A DNA stretch of 64,000 bases from Kiritimatiellia bacterium (GTDB lineage: Bacteria; Verrucomicrobiota; Kiritimatiellia; RFP12; UBA1067), in NCBI GenBank assembly GCA_050949565.1, contig JBMNFY010000010.1, positions 128,001 through 192,000 of the forward strand, read 5' to 3'. Below are positions 353-13,303 of this stretch, piece after piece. Below the pieces are notes generated by a model. It searched no databases, was not told the DNA's origin, and saw only the letters and a list, made by a program, of their open reading frames with translations. How positions within the stretch are numbered: the stretch's first letter is position 1; each line of letters begins with the position of its first letter. The position numbers were made by a program, and so were the translations under genes.

Positions 353-534
353 TTTAACCACGGAACACACCGAACACACGGAAAGGCATGGCTCTGTTTC
401 CGTGTGTTTAGTGTGTTCCGTGGTTCCAATCAGAAATGGCGTTCTGCACCAAATAGGTGCGGCGCGGATCTCAACGGAAGCCAATGTTTACGGGGCTTTG
501 CTCAAAATCTGCATGCTCAACTGCTCTTTTTAGG
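237..534. mobile_element. MITE/IS-remnant-like segment bounded by perfect 18-bp inverted repeats
   Basis: CCTAAAAAGAGCAGTTGA at 237-254 and its exact reverse complement at 517-534; the right copy lies where the 471-746 ORF loses similarity to its paralogs; no transposase, no clear TSD. Confidence 0.55.
356..425. repeat. Nonamer-built long palindrome (AACCACGGAACACAC...GTGTGTTCCGTGGTT)
   Basis: Arms 356-384 and 397-425 are near-perfect reverse complements. Confidence 0.85.
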
Positions 535-746
535 GTAAATGTTTCTGGATTGCCATCCAATGAAACCCCCGACCACACCATCACGTCTGACAATGGATGC
601 CCACCCTGATCGATGCAACAAAGGACGACTTTCATTCTGGCTATTGCATTGTAAGATCCCCTCTTCCTCCTCCCCTCAACGTTGATTTGTGCCACCACGG
701 CAAAAGCAACCATACAGGTCAAAACAACAGCAGTAAGTTTTTTCAT
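535..746 (-). pseudogene. Truncated partner (putative immunity) gene, copy 4
   Basis: Signal peptide, then ARMKVVLCCIDQGGHPLSDVMV resembling ALAKVTLRVVDSRGNPVPDADV of the 3713-4864 paralog; interrupted at the inverted repeat at 534; ATG overlaps the TGA of an upstream hydrolase tail. Confidence 0.65.
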
Positions 747-838
747 TCCAGACCTCCTTTGACGACGACATCCCTGAACACATTGTACACGTAGAAAAAC
801 GCCACATCTTTCAAGTCACTGTGTTTCCAGCGTCGTGC
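743..838 (-). pseudogene. Orphan C-terminal tail of an alpha/beta-hydrolase toxin variant
   Basis: Hand translation ARRWKHSDLKDVAFFYVYNVFRDVVVKGGLE* aligns to MRWLHGDLKDMAFFYNHKLFEDVTAKGGLK* (2028-3635); in-frame stop upstream at 857-859, no ATG. Confidence 0.85.
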
Positions 839-867
839 GGAACACAAGCCCCTTGATTATCCGCTTA

Positions 868-2031
868 TCACGGATAAGGTCCTTTGATCTCAAGATTCGT
901 ATCACCCGGATTCGGATTCAGATAATACGACAATAGCACACCGCAGTAATTAGTCCCACGATCAGAGCCGCCGAACTCAAAATCGCTGACCACTGCAAAC
1001 CGCTTTCTTTCTCCTCTCCGCACGGCAACCACCCAGTACTCCTCTTTGCCGAGTGCGACATTGCTCAATATCTTGTCTTTTGTCCGAACCATGCCGAGCG
1101 TTAAGTCAGAGACCCACCCTGAATCCGGCGGCGCATACGCGAATTTGAAATCGCTGAATGAATCCTTGCGCATGGCCGCGATAGTTGCACCGCTCTCCGC
1201 CGTGACCACAAAACAGTTGGAGTAACAGTATGGTTCCGTATATTGCCATGAGTCAAACCAAAATGACAGATCCGCGACCTTCCCCGTCCCGAACGGTTCA
1301 ACCAAATCTCCGGTTTCGACGTCAAAACCCACTGTCTGATGCTTGGGGAATGTAAGCCATAACCTGTCTTTGCGTTGCATGCTAACCGGATTGCGCTTCT
1401 CCTTCAGCACGATTTCAACTGTCGGATTCCACGGCAGCCAGCGTCCGTCTTTGGCACAATCGTAACCGTTCTTGAAAAACCAGTATCGGATCACAGATGA
1501 ATAATGAGCTTGTTTTTCAATGGTGAAATTCACAAAACCCATGTTCTCGTTTTCAAGAGAGACTATTCCGTCCGCATCGGTCTCGATTTCAAAACGTCTC
1601 TTGTCTTTTGGTTGTCTTTGATTAAAGAATGCGCCTCTGACGGTCGCACTTGGAACGGGAAGCCCGCTGGAGTCAACCACACGGAGTGTGATGGCACCGA
1701 GCAAGCCGTGCTCCACCCCGCGCCTCATTTCCGGCGTATCAACCAACTGTTCGGGCAATCCGTGGTCTATTTCCAGAACCGTTACCGCACCAGAACCGAT
1801 ACTCAGCCTGCTTGTTCTGAACACATTCGATGGCTTCGCCGTCTGCTCTCGATAATTGCCAGATGTTCCAACTGCATTTTGGGCTCTAACAATCGAAGCC
1901 GCTTGTCCGGCCAACTTGTCCTCCGGCCTTCCAGTAATAGTCTCCGTGTGCTTCACAGGCCATCTTGACAAAAGGAACAATAATATGCCCGTCAAAACAG
2001 TTGCGATCACCACATATAGTGCCTGTTTCAT
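868..2031 (-). CDS. Membrane-anchored partner protein (putative immunity, copy 3) with carboxypeptidase-regulatory-like domain
   Basis: 387 aa; N-terminal TM helix; motifs ITLRVVDSSGLPVP, GRWLPWNPTVEIVLKEKRNP and YYLNPNPGDTNLE shared with 3713-4864; ATGA overlap with upstream hydrolase; visibly lower GC. Confidence 0.75.
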   Translation of the reverse strand: MKQALYVVIATVLTGILLFLLSRWPVKHTETITGRPEDKLAGQAASIVRAQNAVGTSGNYREQTAKPSNVFRTSRLSIGSGAVTVLEIDHGLPEQLVDTPEMRRGVEHGLLGAITLRVVDSSGLPVPSATVRGAFFNQRQPKDKRRFEIETDADGIVSLENENMGFVNFTIEKQAHYSSVIRYWFFKNGYDCAKDGRWLPWNPTVEIVLKEKRNPVSMQRKDRLWLTFPKHQTVGFDVETGDLVEPFGTGKVADLSFWFDSWQYTEPYCYSNCFVVTAESGATIAAMRKDSFSDFKFAYAPPDSGWVSDLTLGMVRTKDKILSNVALGKEEYWVVAVRRGERKRFAVVSDFEFGGSDRGTNYCGVLLSYYLNPNPGDTNLEIKGPYP

Positions 2032-3635
2032 TTCAAGCCTCCTTTCGCGGTGACATCCTCAAACAGTTTGTGGTTGTAGAAGAATGCCATGTCCTTCAAA
2101 TCACCGTGCAGCCAGCGCATTTGTAAATCATCATGATTCCGCCCCCATCCGTTGGGACGGGCAACCGTATCCATGTTGATATTTCTATTAGGAAGCGGAT
2201 TGCCAGCGACATCCTTGATGTTAACGATTTGTCCCCCAGTCGGCCCCGACAACGCAGGTAGCCCTCGCGCTAGTAGCTCATTCTGCGTTGCGACGGGGAT
2301 TGTGTTGGTGAACATGGACGCGGGGCAGCGCAGGAACACCGGATGCTCGCCGAGTTCGGAGAGTAGGACGGATTCGGTCTGCACGGCAGGCGGATAAAAG
2401 GCGCCGTTGGGGGTGATCATATGGAAACCCGGACCGACCGCGCCCGACCATGAACTGGTCACGGCGGGTTCCTGATAGGTGTAGCTGTAGACGAAGCCCC
2501 ACCCGGCCCAGGATGTGCCCTCTGGGGTGACACCTTGGCTGAGACGGCCTTTGTGAACCTCCTGCTTGTGCCACGCGAACCATCCCCACGTCAGTTTATC
2601 CCAGATATCCATCCCTTCATTACTGCTGGGAGTGCCAGAAAAGAGTTCCAGCACCTCGTCGCCAGATGAGTAGTAGTTGTAAAGCTCGGTCAAGGCAGAC
2701 ACAGATGCGAGACGGTCCTTCCACGTGAGTTTCCTGCGGTCATCGGTCGGGTCGCCGGCAAAGAACTCGTGCCACTTGGCGCTCCAGCAGGTGTTGGTGT
2801 AGTCGCGCCAGTGTTCATGTGCCATCCAGTTGGCGGTGTCGGGCAAGTCACACCAATGAGACGAATCAAATGCCTCCGCCGCGACAGCGGCGTGGAACAT
2901 GAAGTACTTGTGAACGCTCATGCCGTGGTCGGCGATGGCCGATGAGACGACCATGTTGCCGAGACTGTGCGCCATGATGACCTTCTGGCCCAAAAGTCTG
3001 TTGACATAGCTCTTGAGGTGCGGCGCGGTTGCGAAGGCGGAGACCACATCTTCGTGGTAGCGAAAGACGTTTATGCCGCCAATATCGCCCCGCCACGTCA
3101 CCCCGTGGAAGCGCGCTTTGGAGCCGGACTGCCAGAGGCGCTTGAACATCTCGGAGTGCCAGGCGCGCGCCTCTTCCGGCGTGACGTTGAAGCCGTGCAG
3201 GAAGACGACGTTCGTGCCGTTCGCGGGCGGGAGGCAGGAACCCGGCGTCACGGCGGCGGCGCCGTCGCGCAGGTTGACGCGGGCGTACATCTGCTCCACG
3301 GGCGCGACGTGCAGGGGCAGCGACTTCTCCAGGACCTTCCTGCCTTTGCGCCAGATTTCAAGGACGAGGGGCTCGGTGGTCGCCGCGCGGCCCTCGATGA
3401 GGATGACGCCCTTGGACGGGTCGGCGCGGACGGCATCGGCGAAGACGCCGGGGAGCGCCACGCCGTCGGCGGTGATCTTGCGCGTGGCAACGGTCGGCGC
3501 GGCGGATGTTTGTTCCGGCGAGCGGCTGGCGTGTTCCACCACGGCAGCGCGTTTTGTCGTTTGGGTACGGACAACAAACAAGGCTATTATCGCCAGCACA
3601 AAAGATGCAACAATGATGACAGAGCGTTTGTTCAT
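2028..3635 (-). CDS. Chimeric alpha/beta-hydrolase: partner-type TM N-terminus fused to hydrolase toxin C-terminal module
   Basis: First ~50 aa (MNKRSVII...EQTSAAPTVAT) resemble the N-terminus of 3713-4864 (MNKRTIII...EQTSAVPAVVT); the rest is near-identical to, then diverges from, the C-terminus of 4861-9132; motifs HGFN, AHSLG, RWLHGD. Confidence 0.8.
   Translation of the reverse strand: MNKRSVIIVASFVLAIIALFVVRTQTTKRAAVVEHASRSPEQTSAAPTVATRKITADGVALPGVFADAVRADPSKGVILIEGRAATTEPLVLEIWRKGRKVLEKSLPLHVAPVEQMYARVNLRDGAAAVTPGSCLPPANGTNVVFLHGFNVTPEEARAWHSEMFKRLWQSGSKARFHGVTWRGDIGGINVFRYHEDVVSAFATAPHLKSYVNRLLGQKVIMAHSLGNMVVSSAIADHGMSVHKYFMFHAAVAAEAFDSSHWCDLPDTANWMAHEHWRDYTNTCWSAKWHEFFAGDPTDDRRKLTWKDRLASVSALTELYNYYSSGDEVLELFSGTPSSNEGMDIWDKLTWGWFAWHKQEVHKGRLSQGVTPEGTSWAGWGFVYSYTYQEPAVTSSWSGAVGPGFHMITPNGAFYPPAVQTESVLLSELGEHPVFLRCPASMFTNTIPVATQNELLARGLPALSGPTGGQIVNIKDVAGNPLPNRNINMDTVARPNGWGRNHDDLQMRWLHGDLKDMAFFYNHKLFEDVTAKGGLK
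2895..3488. repeat. ~594-bp direct repeat, copy A (copy B at 5677-6270)
   Basis: Long near-identical stretch at constant offset 2782 encoding RKIT..GVALPG...KYFMF. Confidence 0.9.
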
Positions 3636-3682
3636 TTCAGATCCCCCTTCTGGACAATGTCGTCAAACAGAGGCGCGATGTA
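3632..3682 (-). pseudogene. Short orphan hydrolase C-terminal tail
   Basis: Hand translation YIAPLFDDIVQKGDLK* resembles YNHKLFEDVTAKGGLK* and YNHKIFDSIVEQGNLQ*; TGA overlaps the ATG at 3635 as in the intact pairs. Confidence 0.7.
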
Positions 3683-3712
3683 GGAGCCGCAAAACACTTG
3701 CTCCTGTTCGTC

Positions 3713-4864
3713 CTATGGATATATCTCTTTCCCTTCTAAATTCCGATCATTGTTGGTTGGATTGTAGCGATACTGCAATAACATGTATCCGGTTTCTCCG
3801 TCACGACTTTCGTCAAAAACAAATCGGTAGAACTTGCTGTATAATGATTCCAATATCTTACCGCTTTCGTCGGTAACGCATCTTGATTTCATGATGATAT
3901 AATTATCAGCCGACAAGCTCGTGTCTACCTCAATAACCGTTGGGGTGCGCCTGAATGAAAAAGAAAACTCACGGGTATATCCTGAGGCTGGTGCTTCATG
4001 TAGAGAGACAAACTGGCTATACAAATCCTTCTGCAGAATGATTGCCCCGCATCCCTCGTCAAACGACAGAACAAGGTCTTTTTTTAGGTTAGATCGATCA
4101 TTCCCGTTTGATGTGTATGTTAAAAAGAAATCAGCTACCGTTCCTGACCCATGGGGATCAACCAGTGCTCGTTTTTTACAATCAAACCCAACACGAATTC
4201 CTTTGGGCAAAAGAACTTTAATGTTCTGCACGGAAATCAGGTCGATCGGGTTACGTTTCTCCTTCATCACAACTTCCAGCGTGGGGTTCCACGGAACCCA
4301 TCTTCCGTTTTCAGCGCAGGGTTTGCCTTCGCGGTAAAACCAGTAATTGCGGTAGGTCCTGTAGTATCCCTCTTTCGAGGCATGGAAATGGACGTCCGAC
4401 TCCGACATGTGCTTCGCCGTGAAAAACCCGTTTTTATCGGTCTTGCCGTCAACGGAGTACGGGCCGCGATGGAAGAAGGCGACCTTGACATCGGCGTCCG
4501 GCACGGGGTTGCCGCGCGAGTCCACCACGCGGAGCGTGACCTTGGCGAGCGCGCCGTTCCTCTTCGCGTCCTTGACGGCCGGCGTGTTAGGCCCCCGTTC
4601 GCCGAGCTTGTACTCCTGCTGCGCCTGTGTCAGGTAGAGGGTCGAGCCAGGGGCGCAAAAGGGATGGGCACCGCCCTCGCGCGGACGCGTTTCCTTTTTC
4701 CCGCCCATAGTGACAACGGCTGGCACGGCAGATGTTTGTTCGGAAGCGCGGCGGACTTCGCTTGAAAGGGCAGGCGGTTTTTCGACACGGCTTCGGGTAA
4801 AAACAAGTCCGACCCCGAATATGACTAACGCAAAAACCGTGATGATAATCGTTCGCTTGTTCAT
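3713..4864 (-). CDS. Membrane-anchored partner protein (putative cognate immunity, copy 1)
   Basis: 383 aa; TM N-terminus; VTLRVVDSRGNPVP, GRWVPWNPTLEVVMKEKRNP, YNPTNNDRNLE; ATGA-coupled to the large hydrolase. Confidence 0.78.
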   Translation of the reverse strand: MNKRTIIITVFALVIFGVGLVFTRSRVEKPPALSSEVRRASEQTSAVPAVVTMGGKKETRPREGGAHPFCAPGSTLYLTQAQQEYKLGERGPNTPAVKDAKRNGALAKVTLRVVDSRGNPVPDADVKVAFFHRGPYSVDGKTDKNGFFTAKHMSESDVHFHASKEGYYRTYRNYWFYREGKPCAENGRWVPWNPTLEVVMKEKRNPIDLISVQNIKVLLPKGIRVGFDCKKRALVDPHGSGTVADFFLTYTSNGNDRSNLKKDLVLSFDEGCGAIILQKDLYSQFVSLHEAPASGYTREFSFSFRRTPTVIEVDTSLSADNYIIMKSRCVTDESGKILESLYSKFYRFVFDESRDGETGYMLLQYRYNPTNNDRNLEGKEIYP

Positions 4865-7800
4865 TGTAAATTCCCCTGTTCAACAATGCTGTCGAAAATC
4901 TTGTGGTTGTAAAAATACGACATGTTCTTGATGTCGCCGTGCAGCCATCTGTCCTGATAGGTGCCATGCATCCTCCCCCAACCGTTTGGACGATAACTAA
5001 TATCATTCATATCAACATTGTTATCGCTCAAAATTTCAGGGACATTCCTATTCCCCGCCGCGCCGGAGAGGGCGGGAACCGCCTTGGCGAGGAGGGCGAA
5101 TCGGTCGGCCTCCGTGATCGGGTTTGCGAACATGCTGTCGGGAGCATGCCGGAAGCTGATGCAGACGAGGCCGGTGAGTTCCGTTTCCGAAAAGGCGTTC
5201 GCCTCGGCGGCGGTGTGGAGCGGGTGCGGCTCCTCGTTCATCATGGAGACCAGCTCAAAGCCCCAGCCCGCCCACGAGGTGCCGAAAAGCCCGGCAAATT
5301 CGTCTATCCCGGTGCGCCCCTTGTACAGTTCCTGTTTCTGCCATGAGTAGCGTTCCCTACCCGTCACGACCGGAATGCCGAGGTGAAGCTCAACCCCCTC
5401 CGTGGGAATGGGAGTCCCGTCGTACTGCTCGAAAATCTCATCCCCTGACGAATAGTAGTTGTAGAGACCGGGCAGGCAGGCGGTGAAACGCCCCTTCCAT
5501 GTGAGCGAGTGGCGGTCGTCATTCCCGAACACAAGATCAGGGTCGAACAACTGGTGATAAAGGGCGGACCACGTTCTGGGCAGGTAATCTGCCCAATCTT
5601 CATGCACCATGTTGTTGGCGGCGACCGTGGCGTTCCAGAGCGTGGGGTCGTACGCCTCGGCGGGGACGGCGGCGTTGAACATGAAGTACTTGTGAACGCT
5701 CATGCCGTGGTCGGCGATGGCCGAGGAGACGACCATGTTGCCCAAGCTGTGCGCCATCATGATTTTCTCGCCGGACAAGCCGTTGACGTAGTTCTTGAGG
5801 TGCGGCGCGGTTGCGAAGGCACTGACCACATCCTCGTGGTAGCGAAGGGCATTAGGCCATCCGATGTCACCCTCCCACGTCACCCCGTGGAAGCGCGCTT
5901 TGGAGCCGGACTGCCAGAGGCGCTTGAACATCTCGGCATGCCGTGCGCGCGCCTCTTCCGCATTCACATTGTAGCCGTGCAGGAAGACGACGTTCGTGCC
6001 GTTCGCGGGCGGGAGGCAGGACCCCGGCGTCACGGCGGCGGCGCCGTCGCGCAGGTTGACGCGGGTGTACATCTGCTCCACGGGCGCGACGCACAGGGGG
6101 AGCGACTTCTCCAGGACCTTCTTGCCCTTGCGCCAGATTTCAAGGACGAGGGGTTCGGTGGTCTCGGCGCGGCCCTCGATGAGGATGACGCCCTTGGACG
6201 GGTCGGCGCGGACGGCATCGACGAAGACGCCGGGGAGCGCCACGCCGTCGTCGGTGATCTTGCGCGTGGCGGCGGAGGCGAGTCCCGCGACGTCCGAAAC
6301 GAGGAAGGCGCCGGCGTCGTTGGTGGAGAGCGCGGTCGGGACGTAGGCGAGCGCGTTCCTGGCGTGGCGGAGCTTGATCTCGATCCTGCCGCCGCCGGGC
6401 ACCGCGTCGAGAAGGGCGAGGGCTTCGCTAAGATCCAGCCACACGGGGAAGAAGTCCGGCAGGTCGGCGCGGCCGTTGACGCGCTTGTCCCTGAAGTTGG
6501 CCCTGGACAGCCAGCCGGAGGACCGGCCGGGCCGGTCGCTTTCGCCCTCCGCGACGTCGCCCGTGTCCGCGTCGTCGTTGATCCAGAGGCGGAAGGTGTC
6601 CCCGGACACTTCAGCGGGGGAGATCTCGCGGTCGCGGTTGTAGTCGGGGACGAGCCCGGCGCGGATGACGGTGATCCGGGCGCTCTTCCCGGCGGCGTAG
6701 AAGGTGTCGCCCTCGTTATGGACGCCGAGGATGCCGTCGGGGTCGTCGGCGAGGACGGCCATGCCGGGCGCGGAGGCGTCCGGGGAGAACTCAAGCGTGT
6801 CGTCGTAGTCGGGGCGGGGGGTGTCGTCGTAGTCGGGGTCGGTGGCGACGTGTTCGAGCGCGACCTCGTAGGTCGCTCCGGCGGCAAGCCTGACGGTGAG
6901 CGGGTCGGGCTGGCCGAACGCGCGGTTCACCAGCGTCCAGCCGGGGCGGGCGTCGCCGGATACCGGGGTGACCGTCAGGCGGTATTTTTCGGAGTGGCTG
7001 CCGCTCGTGTCGCCGAAGAGGACCGTGAAGGGGACGGCCTCGCGGGGCTGGCTGTCGGCGGGGTCGAGCGGGTCGAACTCCGGCATGTTCCGGAACTCCC
7101 AGTAATCGTTCAGCCCGTCGCCGTCGGTGTCGGGGTTGAGCGGGTCGGTGCCGGCATCCACCTCGTTGCCGTCCGCAAGGCCGTCGCCGTCGGTGTCGTA
7201 ACCAAACGGGTCGGTGCCGAGGGCAAGCTCCGCGCCGTCGTTCAGCCTGTCGTCGTCGGTGTCGGGGTCGAGCGGGTCGGTGCCGATCCCGAAGCGGTAT
7301 TCCAGCGCGAGGCCGTCCGCGACGGACGCTGTTTCGCATGAAAACTGGAGCGCCTGCGGGACCGTCCGCGCCCCCAGCGTGGCCGAGCGCCCGTCGCCGT
7401 AGCCGCCGACGTTCCGGTAGAACACGCGGAAGCGGTTCGAAACGCCCTCCTCGAAGACAAGTTGGAACGAGACGAGGTTGTTCGTGGTCGCGCCGCCGGA
7501 ACGGAAGCCCGCGTCTTTGTATTCGATGACGCAGTGGCGGTGGCCGTTTGTCGTGACATCCGCCAGCGTGACGGCGGAACCGAGGTCTGCGGGGTAGAGG
7601 CACAGGTCGTCCCAGAACCCGGCGGCGAGCAGGCCGCAGCCGGACGGCATGTACGTATCGCCCATTTCGTCATTGGCGTGCCGCCCGGTGCCGATCGTCC
7701 CGGCTCCCGGGAAAAACCCGGCGATCCCGTTGGCGTTGGCCGACAGGTTGGTCAGCACCCGCCCCCCGAAGAAGAGCGGAAACGGGAGCGGCTCCTCCAC

Positions 7801-9132
7801 GCAGCCCCCGTTCATGTCGGGCGCGAACCGCGCGGTCAGGTCCGTCCCGCCCGACGCGTCGAACCACCGGAAGGCCGTCGCCGCGACCGACGGCGGGCCG
7901 TATTCCTCCCCGTCCGTGAGGCCGTCGTCGTCGCTGTCGCTGTCGCGCGGATTCGTCCCCAGCGCGGCCTCCAGGGCGTTCGAAAGCCCGTCGCCGTCGG
8001 GGTCGGCGTCGGGGCCGTCGCTCCCGTCGAGCGGATTCAGTCCCAGCGCGATCTCCGCGCCGTCGGGACACCCGTCGTTGTCCGTGTCGGCGTCGTCCGG
8101 GTCGGTGAGATAGACCCATGTCTCCATCGCGTCGGAAAGGCCGTCGCCGTCCGCGTCGATGAGCGGGGCGGCGCGGAAAAACGCGGAGGCTGACACCTCC
8201 GCATTGAACCGTGTGGCGACGTTTGTGTAGGCCACGCCGGAGACATAAAGGGAGTCGGCCGTGTTCGTGACGGCCGGCCCCTCGGGGCCCTCCGCCCGCA
8301 CGGGAGGGGGGAGCAGGTTCAAGGGAATCGAGTTGGATGCGGAGCCCCCGGACGGCTCGACCGGGATCTGCGCCAGCGGATGCCACGCGGTGCCGCCCGC
8401 CGCGTTCGTCGCGTCGAGGCGCGGCGCGCAGAGGATGTCCAGCCGGTTCCCCGGCAGCGGATGGCCGTCCGGCCACGCCAGGGCGATCTGCACGGCATTG
8501 GAGTCCACCCGGATGCCCGTGAACCGCAGCCCGTTCGTCCCGCCCGTCCCGCCTCCGCCCGGCGGGTTCCAGAAGCTCTGCCGCGCCTCCGCATAGGCGC
8601 CGAGGTTGGCCGCGTCGACAAAATGCCATTCCATGTCGACATGCGACGGCAGCAGCAGCAGGCGCGTGAAGTCCAGCGCGGACTGGGAGACGCCGTTCGT
8701 CGGCGCGTCCGGCACGCCGTGCAGCTCCGCGATCCAGTCCGGGGTGTAGCCCGCGCCGAGCAGCGGCGGCAGCGTGTCGAACAGGGAGCCGCCCGCGTTG
8801 TAGAAGCCGATGACGCCGCTCGCGTCGTCCGTGCGCAGCGTGACGGGGAAAATCTCGACCCCGCCGAAATTCGTCGCCGTGAGCCCCCCCAGGAACCCCG
8901 CGCCGAATCCGTTCGTGGCGGCCGCCGTCCGGTCGACCGCCCCGCCCCACACCGTGAGGACGCGGTTCGTCACGGGGAAGAACACCCCGATGCCCGACGC
9001 CTGCTCCCGTTCGTACGCCAGCGCCAGGTCCGTCACGTTTTGCGGCTCGCCCGCAAATCCCGGAGGGGGGAAGCCCGCCGCCGCCCGCGCGAGCGTCACC
9101 AGCACGAAACAGAGACGCAGGACGGCAGGCAT
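4861..9132 (-). CDS. Large secreted DxDxDG-repeat protein with C-terminal alpha/beta-hydrolase (lipase-like; putative polymorphic toxin)
   Basis: Signal peptide from likely start MPAVLRLCF at 9132 (ORF extends to 9246); two blocks of TSP3-like Ca-binding DxDxDG repeats; HGYN, AHSLG nucleophile elbow, SSGDE, terminal RWLHGD. Confidence 0.8.
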   Translation of the reverse strand: MPAVLRLCFVLVTLARAAAGFPPPGFAGEPQNVTDLALAYEREQASGIGVFFPVTNRVLTVWGGAVDRTAAATNGFGAGFLGGLTATNFGGVEIFPVTLRTDDASGVIGFYNAGGSLFDTLPPLLGAGYTPDWIAELHGVPDAPTNGVSQSALDFTRLLLLPSHVDMEWHFVDAANLGAYAEARQSFWNPPGGGGTGGTNGLRFTGIRVDSNAVQIALAWPDGHPLPGNRLDILCAPRLDATNAAGGTAWHPLAQIPVEPSGGSASNSIPLNLLPPPVRAEGPEGPAVTNTADSLYVSGVAYTNVATRFNAEVSASAFFRAAPLIDADGDGLSDAMETWVYLTDPDDADTDNDGCPDGAEIALGLNPLDGSDGPDADPDGDGLSNALEAALGTNPRDSDSDDDGLTDGEEYGPPSVAATAFRWFDASGGTDLTARFAPDMNGGCVEEPLPFPLFFGGRVLTNLSANANGIAGFFPGAGTIGTGRHANDEMGDTYMPSGCGLLAAGFWDDLCLYPADLGSAVTLADVTTNGHRHCVIEYKDAGFRSGGATTNNLVSFQLVFEEGVSNRFRVFYRNVGGYGDGRSATLGARTVPQALQFSCETASVADGLALEYRFGIGTDPLDPDTDDDRLNDGAELALGTDPFGYDTDGDGLADGNEVDAGTDPLNPDTDGDGLNDYWEFRNMPEFDPLDPADSQPREAVPFTVLFGDTSGSHSEKYRLTVTPVSGDARPGWTLVNRAFGQPDPLTVRLAAGATYEVALEHVATDPDYDDTPRPDYDDTLEFSPDASAPGMAVLADDPDGILGVHNEGDTFYAAGKSARITVIRAGLVPDYNRDREISPAEVSGDTFRLWINDDADTGDVAEGESDRPGRSSGWLSRANFRDKRVNGRADLPDFFPVWLDLSEALALLDAVPGGGRIEIKLRHARNALAYVPTALSTNDAGAFLVSDVAGLASAATRKITDDGVALPGVFVDAVRADPSKGVILIEGRAETTEPLVLEIWRKGKKVLEKSLPLCVAPVEQMYTRVNLRDGAAAVTPGSCLPPANGTNVVFLHGYNVNAEEARARHAEMFKRLWQSGSKARFHGVTWEGDIGWPNALRYHEDVVSAFATAPHLKNYVNGLSGEKIMMAHSLGNMVVSSAIADHGMSVHKYFMFNAAVPAEAYDPTLWNATVAANNMVHEDWADYLPRTWSALYHQLFDPDLVFGNDDRHSLTWKGRFTACLPGLYNYYSSGDEIFEQYDGTPIPTEGVELHLGIPVVTGRERYSWQKQELYKGRTGIDEFAGLFGTSWAGWGFELVSMMNEEPHPLHTAAEANAFSETELTGLVCISFRHAPDSMFANPITEADRFALLAKAVPALSGAAGNRNVPEILSDNNVDMNDISYRPNGWGRMHGTYQDRWLHGDIKNMSYFYNHKIFDSIVEQGNLQ
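5677..6270. repeat. ~594-bp direct repeat, copy B
   Basis: Matches 2895-3488. Confidence 0.9.
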
Positions 9133-9496
9133 TTTCGCTTTTGTGCTTTTCTTGCTCGTGTCTAGATCACCCGTTGCCTCAATTGCCTTGTCACGACAAC
9201 ATATTATCACACCGCGAAAACGCTTCGCAATCCCTGATTGTCTCATGTCAAACTACTACGTCCCAACAACCATCACTAAACCGGCCACAAATAGCAGTGC
9301 ACTTCTTGATAACGCATCTGTTTTTCATGAAGTTTCATGTGTTTCATGGTTCCACTTGAATGTTGAACGCTATGGTCGTTGCCCAGCGGTGTTGCAAGCA
9401 AGCAGCAACATAAATTGTGGCCGGGTCAGTAACTTTCGCCTGTCGTTTCAGCGTCGGGTATTATATGCTGAGGTAATCGGACAGAGGAGAACGTAG

Positions 9497-10900
9497 ATGA
9501 TCAAACTCACCTTTTTCGGCGCCGCGCAAACCACGACCGGATCCATGCATGTGGTCGAAGCGAACGGAATGAAGATCCTGCTCGACTGCGGGTTGTTTCA
9601 AGGCAGGCGCAAAGAGGCCTTCGAACGCAACCGCAACATGCAGATCACCCCCGCCACCATTGACGCCGTGGTGCTCTCGCACGCGCATATCGACCACAGC
9701 GGCAACCTGCCGACCCTCGCCCGCAACGGCTTTCGCGGCAAGGTCTACTGTACCCCGGCCACGCGCGACCTGTGTGAGATCATGCTGCGTGACTCGGCCT
9801 ATCTGCAGGCGCGCGACCTCGAATACATCAACAAGAAGCGCGCACAGCAGGGCAAGAACCTCTTTGAACCGCTCTATGAGCAGCAGGATGTCGACACGAT
9901 CATGCGTCGCTTCAAGCCCGAACCGCTCAAGCGCCTAGTCGATCTCGGCAATGGCGTCTCGCTGGTCTTTCACAATGCGGGGCACATTTTGGGGTCGGTC
10001 CTGACTCAGCTTGATGTGAAGGACTCCTCGGGCCACTCTCGCCGCCTGCTTTTTACCGGCGACCTGGGACAACCCAACCAGCCGATTCTGCGTGATTACG
10101 ATATGCCGCAGGGTGCCGACATCCTGCTGATCGAAAGCACCTACGCCGACCGCGACCACCCCCCCTCCGATGATGTCAAGGGACGTCTCAAGGGGTTTAT
10201 CGAGGATATCCACCAGTTGAAATCGCGGCTCATCATTCCGGCCTTCAGTGTCGGTCGCACCCAGAACATCCTCTACACCCTGAACCGTCTGACCGAAGAG
10301 GGCCGCATGCCCTCCACGCCGGTGTATGTCGACAGTCCGCTCTCGCTCAAGGCAACCCAAGTCTACGCCAAGCACCGGGAGTGCTATGACGAAGAGGCCT
10401 CGGACATTCTGCGCCAAGGGATCGACCCCATGAAGTTCCCCGGCCTGCGCTTCATCGAGACGCCTGACCAGTCGAAAGCACTGAACGACCTGCCCGGGCC
10501 GCTGATCATCATTGCCGCTTCAGGGATGTGCGAGGGCGGGCGCGTGCTCCACCATCTGCAACGCGCGGTGGGTGATCCGCGCAACATCATTTTGATCGTC
10601 GGCTTTCAGGCCGAGCATACATTGGGACGCCGCATTGTGGAACGCCAGTCGCCCCTCAAGATTCTGGGCGACGAGTTTGAACTGAACGCGCGCGTCCACA
10701 CGATCAACGCCCTTTCGGCGCATGCCGACCGCACGGCGTTGATGCGCTGGTTCGACGGCATCAAGGGAACGCGCCTGAGCCGTGTCTTCGCGGTTCACGG
10801 CGAACCCGAAAAGGTGGCCGCTATGACTGAACTGGTCAAGCAGCACGGCGTGGAGAACGTTGTCGCGCCGGTGCCGGGGCAGACCTTCAAAAATGTCTGA
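9497..10900 (+). CDS. MBL-fold beta-CASP metallo-hydrolase (RNA-processing exonuclease family)
   Basis: LLDCG, SHAHIDH, AGHILGS, ESTY, PAFSVGR, SGMCEGGR, SAHAD, VHGE motifs. Confidence 0.92.
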   Translation: MIKLTFFGAAQTTTGSMHVVEANGMKILLDCGLFQGRRKEAFERNRNMQITPATIDAVVLSHAHIDHSGNLPTLARNGFRGKVYCTPATRDLCEIMLRDSAYLQARDLEYINKKRAQQGKNLFEPLYEQQDVDTIMRRFKPEPLKRLVDLGNGVSLVFHNAGHILGSVLTQLDVKDSSGHSRRLLFTGDLGQPNQPILRDYDMPQGADILLIESTYADRDHPPSDDVKGRLKGFIEDIHQLKSRLIIPAFSVGRTQNILYTLNRLTEEGRMPSTPVYVDSPLSLKATQVYAKHRECYDEEASDILRQGIDPMKFPGLRFIETPDQSKALNDLPGPLIIIAASGMCEGGRVLHHLQRAVGDPRNIILIVGFQAEHTLGRRIVERQSPLKILGDEFELNARVHTINALSAHADRTALMRWFDGIKGTRLSRVFAVHGEPEKVAAMTELVKQHGVENVVAPVPGQTFKNV

Positions 10901-13303
10901 CGGCAACGGACAGGGGATGAAACGTCTTCGCGGACTTGGCGTTTGTCTGGCGGCCGCCGCCTTCGGTGCCGTCACGCTGGCGTCGCAGACGTTGTTGCTG
11001 CGGCGCTTTCTGTGGCGTTTCGAATCCACCGAGTTGGGTGTCGCGATCTTCTTCTCCTCATGGCTACTCGGTGGTGGCCTGGGCGCGGCGGTCGCCGCCA
11101 CGCCGCCGGGCCGCCGACTCGTTCCGCCTGCTGGCCCGTTACGTATGGTTGCCGCCTCTGGTCTGTGCGCTTCTCTACTTCGCGCACTATGCCGTCATCG
11201 GCAACCTGCGCGCCTGGATGGGGTTGCCCGCCTACCACGCCTTCCCGCTGCTCCATCTGGCGCTCGGTTGCCTGCTGGCCAATCTCCCGTTCTGCTTCGC
11301 GATCGGCTGGGGCGTGCCCGCGTTCTGCCTGGCCCTCGAAAACCAAGGGCTTCCGGCGGGACGCGCCTTCGCCGCCGAAGCTTTGGGCTCGGCGCTCTGC
11401 GGAGCACTCGTGACGGCACTGTTGGCCGTCGGCATTGCGCCGGATCCGCGCGACGTAGCGGAATGGTATCGCTTCTTTCCGCAAACCGATACCGCGCCGG
11501 GCCGCTTTGAAACCGGCGGCGGCACCACGCTCTACGGCACGCACGGCGACTCTTTCTACGCTCTCACTGCGGGTGGCGTCAGCGAACTACTGCCGGAAGG
11601 CGACCGCGCCGTTGAACAGGCCGTGCTTGCGCTCTCGCAGCGTCCTTATGCGACCAACGCCCTGCTGATCGGACAGGTGCAACTCGCCACGGCCCGCGCC
11701 TTGGAATCGCTGCGGCCTGACCTTGCCATCACATGGTGCCCCCCGGACGCACGCTACGGAACGCTGCTGCTCAACGCCGTCACCGCCGCCGGCGCCCGCA
11801 CCAACATCCGGGCACCGGGCGTCCAGCCCCGCCGATTCTTGGCCGAGCAACCGGAGAGCAGCTTCGATCTCGTCTTGGTGCAACCGCCCCCTTCGACATC
11901 GCTTGGCGGTGCGGCCTGGCACGATCCGGCGTTCATCCGTGCCGTGAGGCGCGTCACGCAGCGTACCGGCGTCGCGCTGTTCGCGCTGCCGTGTGACGTC
12001 GCGCATGTGACACCGGAACGCGCCGCCCTGCTGGATGCGTTCGTCCGTCCGCTCCGTCAGGTCTGGCCCGAGAGCGGCGTGCTGGTGCCCGGCGCTGGCG
12101 GCTGGTGGATCGCCGCGCAGATTCCGGGACTGGCCTACGGAGCGGATACCGCGCCCGCCCGCTTTGCCCTGTTGAAAAAGAGTGCGCGATTCCCGACTGA
12201 AGCGGTCGCCCTGCTCTACGACGCACCGCGCGCGGCGCGGTTGGCCGAGGCCTGCCCGGCACTGGATCCAGCGCAGCGCGTCTTTCATCTGGAAGGGTTT
12301 CGCGTCGAGCGTGTGCTGGCACTGGGACTGGCCGACGCCATGCGCACCGAGTATCCGGCCTCGACACCTGCCGCTACGCTCGCCTGGTTGACTGGCCATG
12401 GAGGGAATAGGGGAGGCCGACTGCTCGGCCTGTTGCTCGTGATGCTGTGGGCCGCTCCGGTTGCACTGGGCAATGACCGTCATGCGTCGCGCCGCTTGTG
12501 GACAGCGTGGCTGGCCAGTTGCGGTGCATTTGGACTCGTCATGTCATTAGCGATAAACTATCAACTCCACGCACGTTTCGGTGCGCTCTATGCGCTGGTT
12601 GGTGCGGGTAGCGCGCTCTATCTGGGCGGCCTGTTCTGCGGCAACCGAATGAGCGAACGGCTGACCGCACGCTGGCCGGTCGAGAGCATCGCATGGCGCG
12701 TGGCGGCACTTCTGCTGCCGCTGGCACAGGCAGGTGTGGCGTGGGCGATCCTGTCGGGGTGCACTCATCTGAGTGCGGCATGGAGCGTTGTCGCGCTCTG
12801 CCTGCCTGCTGGCGTGGCGGCCGGTGCCGCCGTGCCGGTGGCATTGGGTGCGCGGCGCGATCGGCGCACCGAGGATACGGCCCTTTTCGTGCTGGCCGAT
12901 GCCGCAGGCGCGGCATTGGCCGGACTCGCCTTCACCGTGCTTGGTGCCGCTCGCGGGTCTTAATGGTGCGGTGCTTTACTTCGCGGCCTTGGCTGTCGGG
13001 ATCGGCCTCTGCGTAGCGGCGGGCGGTGAAACGCCGCGATTGGCAACCGGCCTGGCTCTGGTTATCGCGACGGTTTTGTTTATCGTCGGCTTGCGCCCCG
13101 CGCAATTTGACGAGCGGCCAACTCGGCGTGAGTCACACGCCGCCGCTCAAGAGACGCGCACACGCACATCGCGTCCGTCCGTTGCGCTCGATCCCGATAC
13201 GATAGGTCCGCGCGGCATTCCGCGCAAACTGGACGAACCGCGCATCCGCGAGCAGTTGCGCACGGGCAGGCTATCGACAAACGAAGCCGCGTTCTGGGAG
13301 TGA
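10893..13303 (+). pseudogene. Multi-TM spermidine-synthase-like membrane protein split by two +1 frameshifts
   Basis: A continuous protein is recovered by joining frames at ~11124 (GTTCCGC) and ~12943 (CTTGGTG); TM block, degenerate methyltransferase-like domain (SFDLVLV), TM block. Confidence 0.6.

Follow-up and report, generated by a model that had tools for sequence, protein, structure and literature searches.

We analysed a 64,000-nt stretch of DNA from an uncultured Kiritimatiellia bacterium of digesters, which we call the window (positions 128001-192000 of contig C10, JBMNFY010000010.1, in assembly GCA_050949565.1; the genome comprises 4.66 Mb and is 92% complete). The source names of its closest protein relatives likewise point to Kiritimatiellae. 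Five open reading frames (ORFs), all on the minus strand, lie within positions 471-9246 of the window. The first in order of transcription, T1, encodes a long protein that ends in a lipase-like hydrolase module. It is followed by I1, which encodes a partner protein with a predicted membrane anchor, and then by displaced hydrolase ends and further partner genes. We think that this is probably a locus for a Sec-dependent polymorphic toxin of the lipase type and its periplasm-facing immunity family. Its features are listed here, with positions given within the window.

4861-9246, minus: T1, full-length toxin candidate (1461 amino acids from the first ATG; 1423 from M39 at 9132, the probable start)
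9073-9132, minus: signal peptide of the Sec type at T1 residues 39-58, MPAVLRLCFVLVTLARAAAG (recognised by eye)
7903-8163, minus: first block of TSP3 repeats (DxDxDG, calcium-binding type), T1 residues ~362-448
7072-7269, minus: second block of TSP3 repeats, T1 residues ~660-725
5654-6270, minus: conserved recombination core of T1 (~92% DNA identity to 2872-3488), ending just past the serine of the AHSLG motif
4864-6198, minus: hydrolase module of T1, residues 1017-1461, a small beta domain plus an alpha/beta-hydrolase (HG1090-1091, S1167, D1269, H1436)
4864-5646, minus: variable C-terminal part of T1, residues 1201-1461, which holds all of the predicted contacts with I1
3713-4864, minus: I1, partner and immunity candidate (383 amino acids; transmembrane helix 3-24, linker, transthyretin-like domain 105-204, HmuY-like domain 207-377)
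3632-3682, minus: T2 tail, the last 16 codons and stop of a displaced hydrolase (found with the hydrolase profile)
2028-3635, minus: chimera (535 amino acids) of the I2 N-terminus (transmembrane anchor, ~50 amino acids) in frame with T3
868-2031, minus: I3, second full-length partner, in the position cognate to T3 (387 amino acids)
743-838, minus: T4 tail, the last 31 codons and stop of a displaced hydrolase, with the WxHSD histidine motif kept
471-746, minus: last ORF, placed where a fourth partner would be, with an ATGA junction and a hydrophobic N-terminus (91 amino acids; its likeness to the partners is not significant)

An earlier reading of the sequence alone, made without database searches (the sequence-only reading), had described this layout as T1, I1, a T2 tail, an I2::T3 chimera, I3, a T4 tail, and a truncated fourth partner. 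The order and the identity of the first six elements stand. That of the seventh is less sure: the 91-amino-acid ORF does not significantly match the hidden Markov model (HMM) of the partner family (E 0.11), so its membership in that family is unconfirmed, and no more partner remnants were found downstream of it. The T4 tail matches the final 31 positions of the hydrolase HMM (E 1.7e-14), the T2 tail matches only the final 16 (E 2e-4 in a two-sequence search), and both stop exactly where the HMM ends. At all four junctions of a hydrolase stop and a partner start (4/4), the two codons overlap as ATGA, as the sequence-only reading had noticed. The motifs HGxN, AHSLG, GRWxPWNPT..KEKRNP, and NPxxxDxNLE are all found at the locus. 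Across the whole genome, both families are confined to this locus, with two matches for the partner and three for the hydrolase.

The chimera consists of two well-defined parts. Residues 1 to ~50 correspond to the start of the partner proteins (40% identity to I1), and P0017, an intact partner that comes from a different sample, has almost the same sequence there. The alignment to T1 (residues 991-1461) sets in at residue 48 of the chimera; T3 is equivalent to T1 residues 993-1461 and keeps the serine, aspartate, and histidine motifs. The DNA homology between the chimera and T1 starts at the short common sequence GCCACGCGCAAG (microhomology GCCACG...), so a deletion at this shared sequence would have joined I2 to T3. 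Neither I3 nor the T3 module is shortened, and both have all of the motifs and are free of internal stops.

Comparing T1 with T3 shows where the hydrolases diverge. A DNA block of 618 nt (5654-6270 versus 2872-3488) takes in the small beta domain together with the HG motif and the serine of AHSLG. In 30-residue windows, the two proteins are 80-93% identical up to about T1 residue 1200 and 20-60% identical after that, with the drop about 35 residues past the catalytic serine; this corresponds to 85% identity over the HMM core and ~35% beyond it. The claim of a near-identical core with a diverging C-terminus is thus borne out, as is the description of the partners as diverged paralogs of lower GC content: I1 and I3 are 32% identical, with GC contents of 51% and 50%. 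By comparison, the GC content is 69.7% in the N-terminal part of T1, 57% in the variable parts of the hydrolases, and 60.4% in the genome, and GC at third codon positions is 0.89 in the carrier part of T1 versus 0.55-0.58 in the partners. The cassettes are compositionally foreign.

I3 is itself a mosaic. Its N-terminal half (79%) and the T3 tail (75%) resemble a cassette in the related genome G009 (L050, G009:C161; G, C, and L numbers are our labels for genomes, contigs, and loci). Its C-terminal half is 78% identical to a partner from G029 (L047, G029:C3), which is a genome from another family. Because the two halves of I3 resemble different lineages, there would be a second recombination point within the partner, after the GRWxPWNPT..KEKRNP block, and this invariant block may itself serve as the recombination site.

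Hydrolase module, partner family, and predicted complex

The predicted structure of the T1 module (the last 445 residues) is an alpha/beta-hydrolase behind a small beta domain, with a mean predicted local distance difference test score (pLDDT) of 90.2 and a predicted template-modelling score (pTM) of 0.90. Across 42 aligned homologues, HG74-75, S151, and H420 never vary, and at least 90% of the sequences have D253. (In this numbering of the module, HG74-75, S151, D253, and H420 correspond to HG1090-1091, S1167, D1269, and H1436 of T1.) In a structural search of the full library, the best matches were lipases (Lip_vut1, Z 13.9), followed by thioesterases, Tle3 (13.1), Legionella RavL (12.9), hornet venom phospholipase A1 (PLA1, 12.2), and PGAP1 (12.2). 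The match to Tle3 (PDB 8boz; root-mean-square deviation 4.0 over 215 aligned residues) is level with those to dozens of other hydrolases, and all of these top scores lie no more than two Z units from those of dozens of others. By sequence, the hydrolases match only part of DUF900 (PF05990), at 24.6 and 25.8 bits, versus a cut-off of 20.5. The Pfam scan gave no sequence match to the Tle families, and a comparison of the module to the sequences of solved structures gave nothing at E <= 1. "Lipase" is therefore a label at the level of the predicted fold.

The predicted structure of the partner (pLDDT 86.6) comprises a transmembrane helix (residues 3-24), a disordered linker, and two beta domains. 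Residues 105-204 form a domain like transthyretin or CarboxypepD_reg, and residues 207-377 are most similar to BfrB and HmuY (Z 10.8 and 9.3, which are middling scores). Foldseek matched only the transthyretin-like domain, and only generically, and searching the partner profile against solved structures returned only a transthyretin-like fragment (3e8v, E 5e-4). The searches for similar folds matched no Tli protein. Pfam gave nothing beyond a sub-threshold match to CarboxypepD_reg and no named Imm family, and the Pfam and NCBIfam scans found no foldase family in the partner. As the transmembrane helix is preceded by the positively charged residues MNKR, we infer that the bulk of the partner lies in the periplasm. 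In the alignment, this helix is replaced in other family members by an ordinary signal peptide or by an N-terminus that resembles a lipobox.

The partner family is large. We searched its profile against 1.84 billion cluster representatives (clustered at 50% identity) and found 8336 matches at E <= 0.001. The stricter thresholds of E <= 1e-10 and E <= 1e-30 left 2929 and 1587 of them; at the weak end, some matches are bound to be transthyretin-like repeats that are unrelated. In the source databases, the matches are named only "hypothetical" or "Ig-like domain-containing". The family has no record in Pfam, NCBIfam, or the open literature, so it is most likely undescribed, as the sequence-only reading had supposed. 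Our search of the open literature (outside of supplements and subscription journals) found no description of such a system for Kiritimatiellae, Kiritimatiellota, or Verrucomicrobiota, and a search there for TSP3 together with polymorphic toxins returned only TraA of myxobacteria.

We modelled the complex of the T1 module with residues 95-383 of I1, from alignments that we had built ourselves. The score was 0.81 (0.81, 0.76, and 0.82 in separate runs), while the best control scored 0.00; for reference, 58 of 80 complexes with solved structures attain 0.81, as do 2 of 110 mismatched pairs. At least 85% of the contacts are common to the runs, and the pLDDT of the partner is 89 or higher. All 37 of the toxin's contact residues (37/37) lie at module positions 185-437, which is in the part that varies between T1 and T3, beside D253 and H420. 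On the partner's side, both beta domains contribute contacts. Conservation is lower for contact residues, both in the variable part of the toxin (0.36 versus 0.53) and in the partner (0.37 versus 0.55). The sequence-only reading had proposed predicting complexes of cognate and non-cognate pairs; the model of this one pair, with its contacts on variable surfaces, supports binding between the T1 module and I1.

Pairing in related genomes and variation in populations

The sequence-only reading had proposed testing for strict adjacency with HMMs of the two families. We built these HMMs, and across the order (41 genomes), 20 genomes have the partner and 21 have the hydrolase. Among the 41 hydrolase matches that reach the C-terminus, 33 have a partner within 700 nt downstream. 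Conversely, 34 of the 58 partner matches in the order have a hydrolase upstream, and 42 of 58 have either a hydrolase or another partner there. The overlapping junction is conserved too: of the 35 hydrolase ends in the window and 23 further loci, 32 are ATGA, two are GTGA, and one is of another kind. (An ORF that fuses a tail to a partner was left out of this count.) In that ORF, which is at L060:779-2179 (G022:C31), a hydrolase tail (HMM positions 416-518) is fused in frame to a full partner (HMM positions 86-377), which is the reverse of the I2::T3 chimera in the window.

Scanning the 23 loci with the two HMMs revealed a common grammar. A full toxin of 1200-3600 amino acids comes first, then a partner, and then 3' fragments of toxins, of varied length, each with a partner. 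Some arrays have tandem runs of four to six partners. Arrays of orphan tails and partners are found in G029, G009, G001, G015, and G022 and at loci L067-L142.

To cover more lineages, we also used a pattern scan of one genome per species, which gave 77 loci with 107 partner ORFs. Eleven of these ORFs are at the edge of a contig, which leaves 96 whose placement can be assessed: 62 are behind a hydrolase and another 21 are behind another partner. The pairing thus holds across genomes of the Planctomycetes-Verrucomicrobia-Chlamydiae (PVC) group, where the sequence-only reading had proposed to test adjacency. The 77 loci are from Kiritimatiellia, Lentisphaerae, and many Verrucomicrobiota (Opitutaceae, Lacunisphaera, Chthoniobacter, Pedosphaera, and Puniceicoccales), with a few in metagenome-assembled genomes (MAGs) that are labelled as Chryseolinea, gammaproteobacterium, Phycisphaeraceae, Hydrogenedentota, or Auribacterota. 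Among the bins from outside of the PVC group, toxin-partner pairs are present at L114, L121, L132, and L139 (Chryseolinea MAG), L118 (gammaproteobacterial MAG), and L122 (Phycisphaeraceae MAG). These occurrences reflect either lateral transfer or mis-binning.

The hydrolase tip is found on several kinds of carrier. Of 120 listed long homologues with this tip, 78 are TSP3 carriers. The remaining carriers in this list include proteins with RCC1, LTD, beta-helix, fn3, or Big_2 domains, and one protein with RHS repeats (P0104). None of the 120 has an accession that is known to us as one of VgrG, PAAR, TPS, or LXG. The sequence-only reading had the carrier as something other than Rhs, which is correct at this locus and, given P0104, not correct for the family as a whole.

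We also asked how the locus varies within populations. Fourteen DNA sequencing runs, from at least 12 studies of digesters or bioreactors between 2016 and 2025, contain 0.91-0.95 of the sampled words from this 9-kb stretch. DNA contigs from 2016 and from 2025, from different studies, have no differences over 1458-2924 and 3409/3459-5706. These contigs bridge the T3/I3 junction, the junctions of I1, the T2 tail, and the chimera, and the T1/I1 junction, and they break only at the repeated core. Since they are identical, the array is fixed in this population. Other cassettes are present in the congeners G001 and G002. The predicted variation of the array was thus seen between congeners and not within the population from 2016 to 2025. 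Separately, in all four runs whose contigs were aligned to the stretch, the contig depths add up to 20- to 100-fold more at window positions 400-700 and 9129-9400. In the two DNA runs, the depths at these ends are 284-339 and 1212-1361 versus ~12 elsewhere, and there are many loose contig ends at 517-539 and 9317-9360. The short sequences at the ends are common to many other organisms, or are repeats, in metagenomes.

Six RNA-library runs contain 0.32-0.47 of the sampled words. In two studies, contigs assembled from RNA libraries extend over most of T1 (4995-9055) and over short pieces of I1 and I3, and one contig spans the T1/I1 junction. These contigs show no strand and may include carried-over DNA, so they are a weak hint that the locus is expressed. 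Contigs cannot rank expression, and parts of the chimera and I3 that lack RNA-library contigs are not thereby silent.

T1 carrier and genome context

T1 most likely starts at M39, where the signal-like sequence begins; its record in the ESM Atlas likewise begins at residue 39. This start gives 1423 amino acids, close to the ~1420 that were first estimated. In Pfam, T1 has five TSP3 calcium-binding repeats (TSP3_bac) and a partial match to DUF900, and nothing else. Together with the signal at M39, these repeats uphold the sequence-only reading's Sec signal and calcium-binding stalk. An NCBIfam scan gave nothing further above the cut-off. The other pieces of the carrier (residues 39-359, 450-659, and 740-1016) had no match in Pfam at E <= 1, and the ESM Atlas had no usable match for residues 735-1016.

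The carrier is far more conserved than its tip. It is 95% identical in the congener G002 and 79-95% identical across G002, G029, and G009, while their tips are 47-64% identical. Compared to window positions 7050-9132, the first ~690 residues of the carrier are 86-87% identical at three loci of G029 (L047/L048/L049, on C3 and C11). As G029 belongs to another family of the order, this identity is far above what vertical descent would lead one to expect and suggests that the whole toxin gene may have spread laterally.

Two paralogous carriers are encoded elsewhere in the genome. The one on C17 (G000:C17:806234-811387; L045:3234-8387, minus strand) is a giant Sec-type protein of 1717 amino acids whose N-terminal domain is 41% identical to that of T1. 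It has eight TSP3 and six RCC1 stretches, and its C-terminus is weakly CHAP-like (E 0.004). An ORF of 277 amino acids and of no known family (L045:2404-3237) overlaps its end by 4 nt. It is possible that these two genes encode another pair of toxin and immunity protein, in which the tip is a cell-wall amidase.

On one side, the locus is flanked by a gene for a beta-CASP/metallo-beta-lactamase RNase (RNase J or CPSF-like; window 9497-10900, plus strand), which is divergent from T1. The 364-bp spacer between them (9133-9496) would hold both promoters. Beyond this gene is a 675-amino-acid ORF that belongs to no Pfam family (10936-12963, plus strand), which includes a segment with extreme AT skew (-0.40) and 67% GC content (11001-11500) and is overlapped by long ORFs on the opposite strand (11587-12483). 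On the other side of the locus are housekeeping-like ORFs, which by eye resemble aminoacyl-tRNA synthetases. Scanning the locus for terminators gave nine, which is not above the expectation from shuffled sequence (10.4), and a promoter scan gave only weak promoter-like sites. Elsewhere in the genome, the Secretin family (PF00263) has five or six matches, five of them above the family's cut-off.

A probable polymorphic toxin locus and its alternatives

The reading that we favour, of a Sec-dependent lipase-type toxin with a periplasm-facing immunity family, builds on what was observed: the anatomy of the locus, the conserved pairing, the composition, the predicted folds, and the predicted complex. 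As judged by sequence comparison, every comparative feature of a polymorphic toxin/immunity array that we examined was found. The feature of the same carrier with another toxin was seen only weakly, in the CHAP-like end of the C17 paralogue (E 0.004).

Such a system could work as follows. T1 would be made with a Sec signal and then exported. Its N-terminal part, with TSP3 repeats between beta-rich domains, would be the carrier or stalk. The last ~445 residues, with the HG oxyanion motif and the Ser-Asp-His set, would most likely attack the membrane of neighbouring bacteria from the periplasmic side, as a (phospho)lipase. Translation of I1 would be coupled to that of T1 at the ATGA overlap, the N-terminal helix of I1 would anchor it in the inner membrane, and its two periplasmic beta domains would clamp the variable cap near the catalytic aspartate and histidine. 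This clamp would protect the producer during export and from its sister cells. New cassettes of a tail and an immunity gene would recombine in at the core that ends just past the catalytic serine and would displace the old tail and immunity gene downstream, which could have left the T2 tail, I2::T3, I3, the T4 tail, and the last ORF. Intact orphan partners may be retained as protection against other variants. In this scheme, we infer the toxicity, the lipid substrate, the immunity, the route across the outer membrane, and the entry into the target.

The layout resembles that of the polymorphic toxins CdiA-CT/CdiI of contact-dependent inhibition (CDI), Rhs-CT/RhsI, and MafB, as presented in Zhang et al. 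2012 (PMC3482391). As in these systems, a long protein is exported, its body is conserved, and the toxin at its C-terminus can be swapped; the immunity gene is directly downstream, followed by displaced 3' ends of toxins with further immunity genes; one tip occurs on several carriers; and the cassettes have a foreign composition. Unlike in these systems, the locus has no two-partner secretion (TPS) or CdiB partner and no Rhs shell, the genome has no type VI secretion (T6SS) markers, and the carrier has a Sec signal and TSP3 repeats. Pfam found no TPS domain in T1, and there is no CdiB transporter among the neighbouring genes. Furthermore, the break point here is inside the enzyme's fold, past the catalytic serine, instead of at a demarcating motif before the toxin domain, and the immunity gene is mosaic, with a second break after KEKRNP.

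Three other kinds of hydrolase are similar in some respects. Like the Tle1-4/Tli pairs, T1 has a GxSxG-type alpha/beta-hydrolase (AHSLG here, with S151 invariant in 42 sequences), and the exposure of its candidate immunity protein to the periplasm points to a target in the periplasm or the membrane. Unlike these pairs, there are no VgrG, Hcp, or PAAR neighbours at the locus, no T6SS sheath or Hcp was found in this genome, the Pfam match is partial and to DUF900 instead of to a Tle family, and the partner's fold matched no Tli. Tox-ABhydrolase-1/2/3, which according to the same study (PMC3482391) are C-terminal tips of polymorphic toxins that are thought to attack lipids and have SUKH, Imm66, or Imm69 as immunity proteins, also place an alpha/beta-hydrolase at the C-terminus. 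The partner here differs in that it belongs to no named Imm family in Pfam, and the profiles of Tox-ABhydrolase-2 and -3 were not among the matches of the hydrolase. Third, a preprint describes cinquedea of Haloferax, a secreted DUF900-type alpha/beta-hydrolase, as a bactericidal phospholipase A and as a single-gene unit with no partner (bioRxiv 10.64898/2026.06.10.730825). By that description, it is a precedent for our reading, as a secreted hydrolase from the neighbourhood of DUF900 that kills without an injection machine, and it resembles hornet venom PLA1, as the T1 module does. It differs in being archaeal and in having no partner, giant carrier, or cassette array.

Several observations weigh against a toxin and its immunity protein. 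First, no delivery machine was identified in the genome or the neighbourhood: the 92%-complete genome has no match to the T6SS sheath TssC (PF05943) or to Hcp (PF05638), the genes that flank the locus are not delivery genes, and if the reading is true, then it poses the question of how a Sec-exported toxin reaches the periplasm of a neighbour, for which no route is evident. Second, the enzymatic assignment is broad. The structural matches cannot tell lipases from other esterases (Z of 11-14 to dozens of families), the Foldseek matches of the hydrolase model are generic with template-modelling scores of at most 0.22, and the match to DUF900 covers just positions 22-114 of the 232 in the profile. 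Third, 13 of the 96 partners whose placement can be assessed stand alone. Fourth, the identical contigs from 2016 and 2025 show no visible turnover. Fifth, none of the 17 invariant columns of the partner (GRWxPWNPT..KEKRNP and N..E; 0/17) are in the predicted interface. An immunity protein would not usually be conserved outside of its interface in this way, which hints that the partner has some other conserved role as well. Finally, across 27 of the 32 toxin-partner pairs (pairs with truncated matches were dropped), the identity of toxin tails tracks that of the adjacent partner's N-terminal half (r 0.70) more than that of its C-terminal half (r 0.51), and yet in the predicted complex both halves contact the toxin. 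This covariation test gave no clean support for coevolution, as physical linkage explains the r values just as well.

The strongest alternative is that T1 is a secreted lipase or esterase for nutrition or for interaction with a host, with the partner as its dedicated periplasmic helper, a steric chaperone or activator like the Lif foldases of Pseudomonas/Burkholderia lipases, and no killing. As with Lif, the partner is a membrane-anchored protein that is predicted to bind the secreted enzyme; its gene is directly downstream of the enzyme's and translationally coupled to it. The predicted complex is equally expected of a chaperone, and a helper would also account for strongly invariant motifs that lie outside of the interface. 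Moreover, an immunity protein that activates its Tle lipase has been reported in a preprint (bioRxiv 10.1101/2023.03.28.534661), and by analogy it is possible that the immunity protein here has a second, activating role. Yet many intact partners occur without a full hydrolase, in arrays of four to six, behind another partner, or alone, and a foldase without a client has no use. The displaced tails, the fusion to RHS repeats, and the hypervariable contact surfaces fit conflict systems. Lif foldases are alpha-helical, while the partner is all-beta, matches no foldase family in Pfam, and occurs in orphan arrays that lack a lipase. Given these differences, we consider a helper to be unlikely.

Another view, which stands independently of the other alternatives, is that only T1 and I1 matter and that the downstream half (the chimera, I3, the T4 tail, and the last ORF) is decaying debris from duplications. 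This would explain a chimera that was born of a deletion at a short microhomology, the tiny size of the T2 and T4 tails, and a last ORF that is not recognisable as a partner. The RNA-library contigs that were listed (from two runs) are mostly on T1, with short pieces downstream, although such contigs cannot rank expression. On the other hand, I3 and the T3 module are complete, with every motif and no internal stop, the 78% identity of I3's C-terminal half to a partner from another family suggests recent exchange, and the arrangement did not change from 2016 to 2025. Wholesale decay thus seems quite unlikely to us.

The least probable alternative, which we consider to be very unlikely, is that the tails and partners are silent cassettes for gene conversion of a surface protein that evades phage or predators and is not a toxin: a conserved core, a variable tail, silent 3' fragments downstream, a carrier that resembles large TSP3/RCC1 surface proteins, and the lack of an injection machine (as far as TssC and Hcp were sought) would suit it, but the catalytic HG/Ser/Asp/His set is kept across the family, the downstream genes are complete, exported, and predicted to bind the variable surface, the same tip is on an RHS-repeat protein, and no variants of the array were seen in runs from nine years apart.

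If the locus does encode a polymorphic toxin and its immunity proteins, then it might be one case of a wider phenomenon. Tentatively, and with somewhat more doubt than confidence, we suggest that PVC bacteria have their own form of antagonism that is independent of T6SS, CDI, and Rhs, in which Sec-exported TSP3/RCC1 stalks, stiffened by calcium, would present exchangeable toxic tips (lipase-type or, on a paralogue, CHAP-like) to neighbours or release them there, and in which a two-domain, membrane-anchored family of immunity proteins, unrecognised until now and with more than 1500 clusters, would counter them. In this proposal, the halves of the partner would be shuffled separately, so that the specificity of immunity would be built combinatorially.

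To our knowledge, nearly all of the toxin systems with which bacteria attack each other have been described from Proteobacteria, Bacteroidota, and Firmicutes, and from the machines with which these inject toxins. In the PVC phyla, members of a large protein family that lacks annotation are regularly paired with a lipase-like tip borne by giant proteins that depend on Sec, in the present case in a genome without T6SS markers. If our reading is true, then these bacteria, which are abundant in digesters, guts, soil, and water, would have a competition system of their own; the partner would represent a new immunity fold; and the locus would be a clear case of recombination break points inside both an enzyme and its inhibitor.

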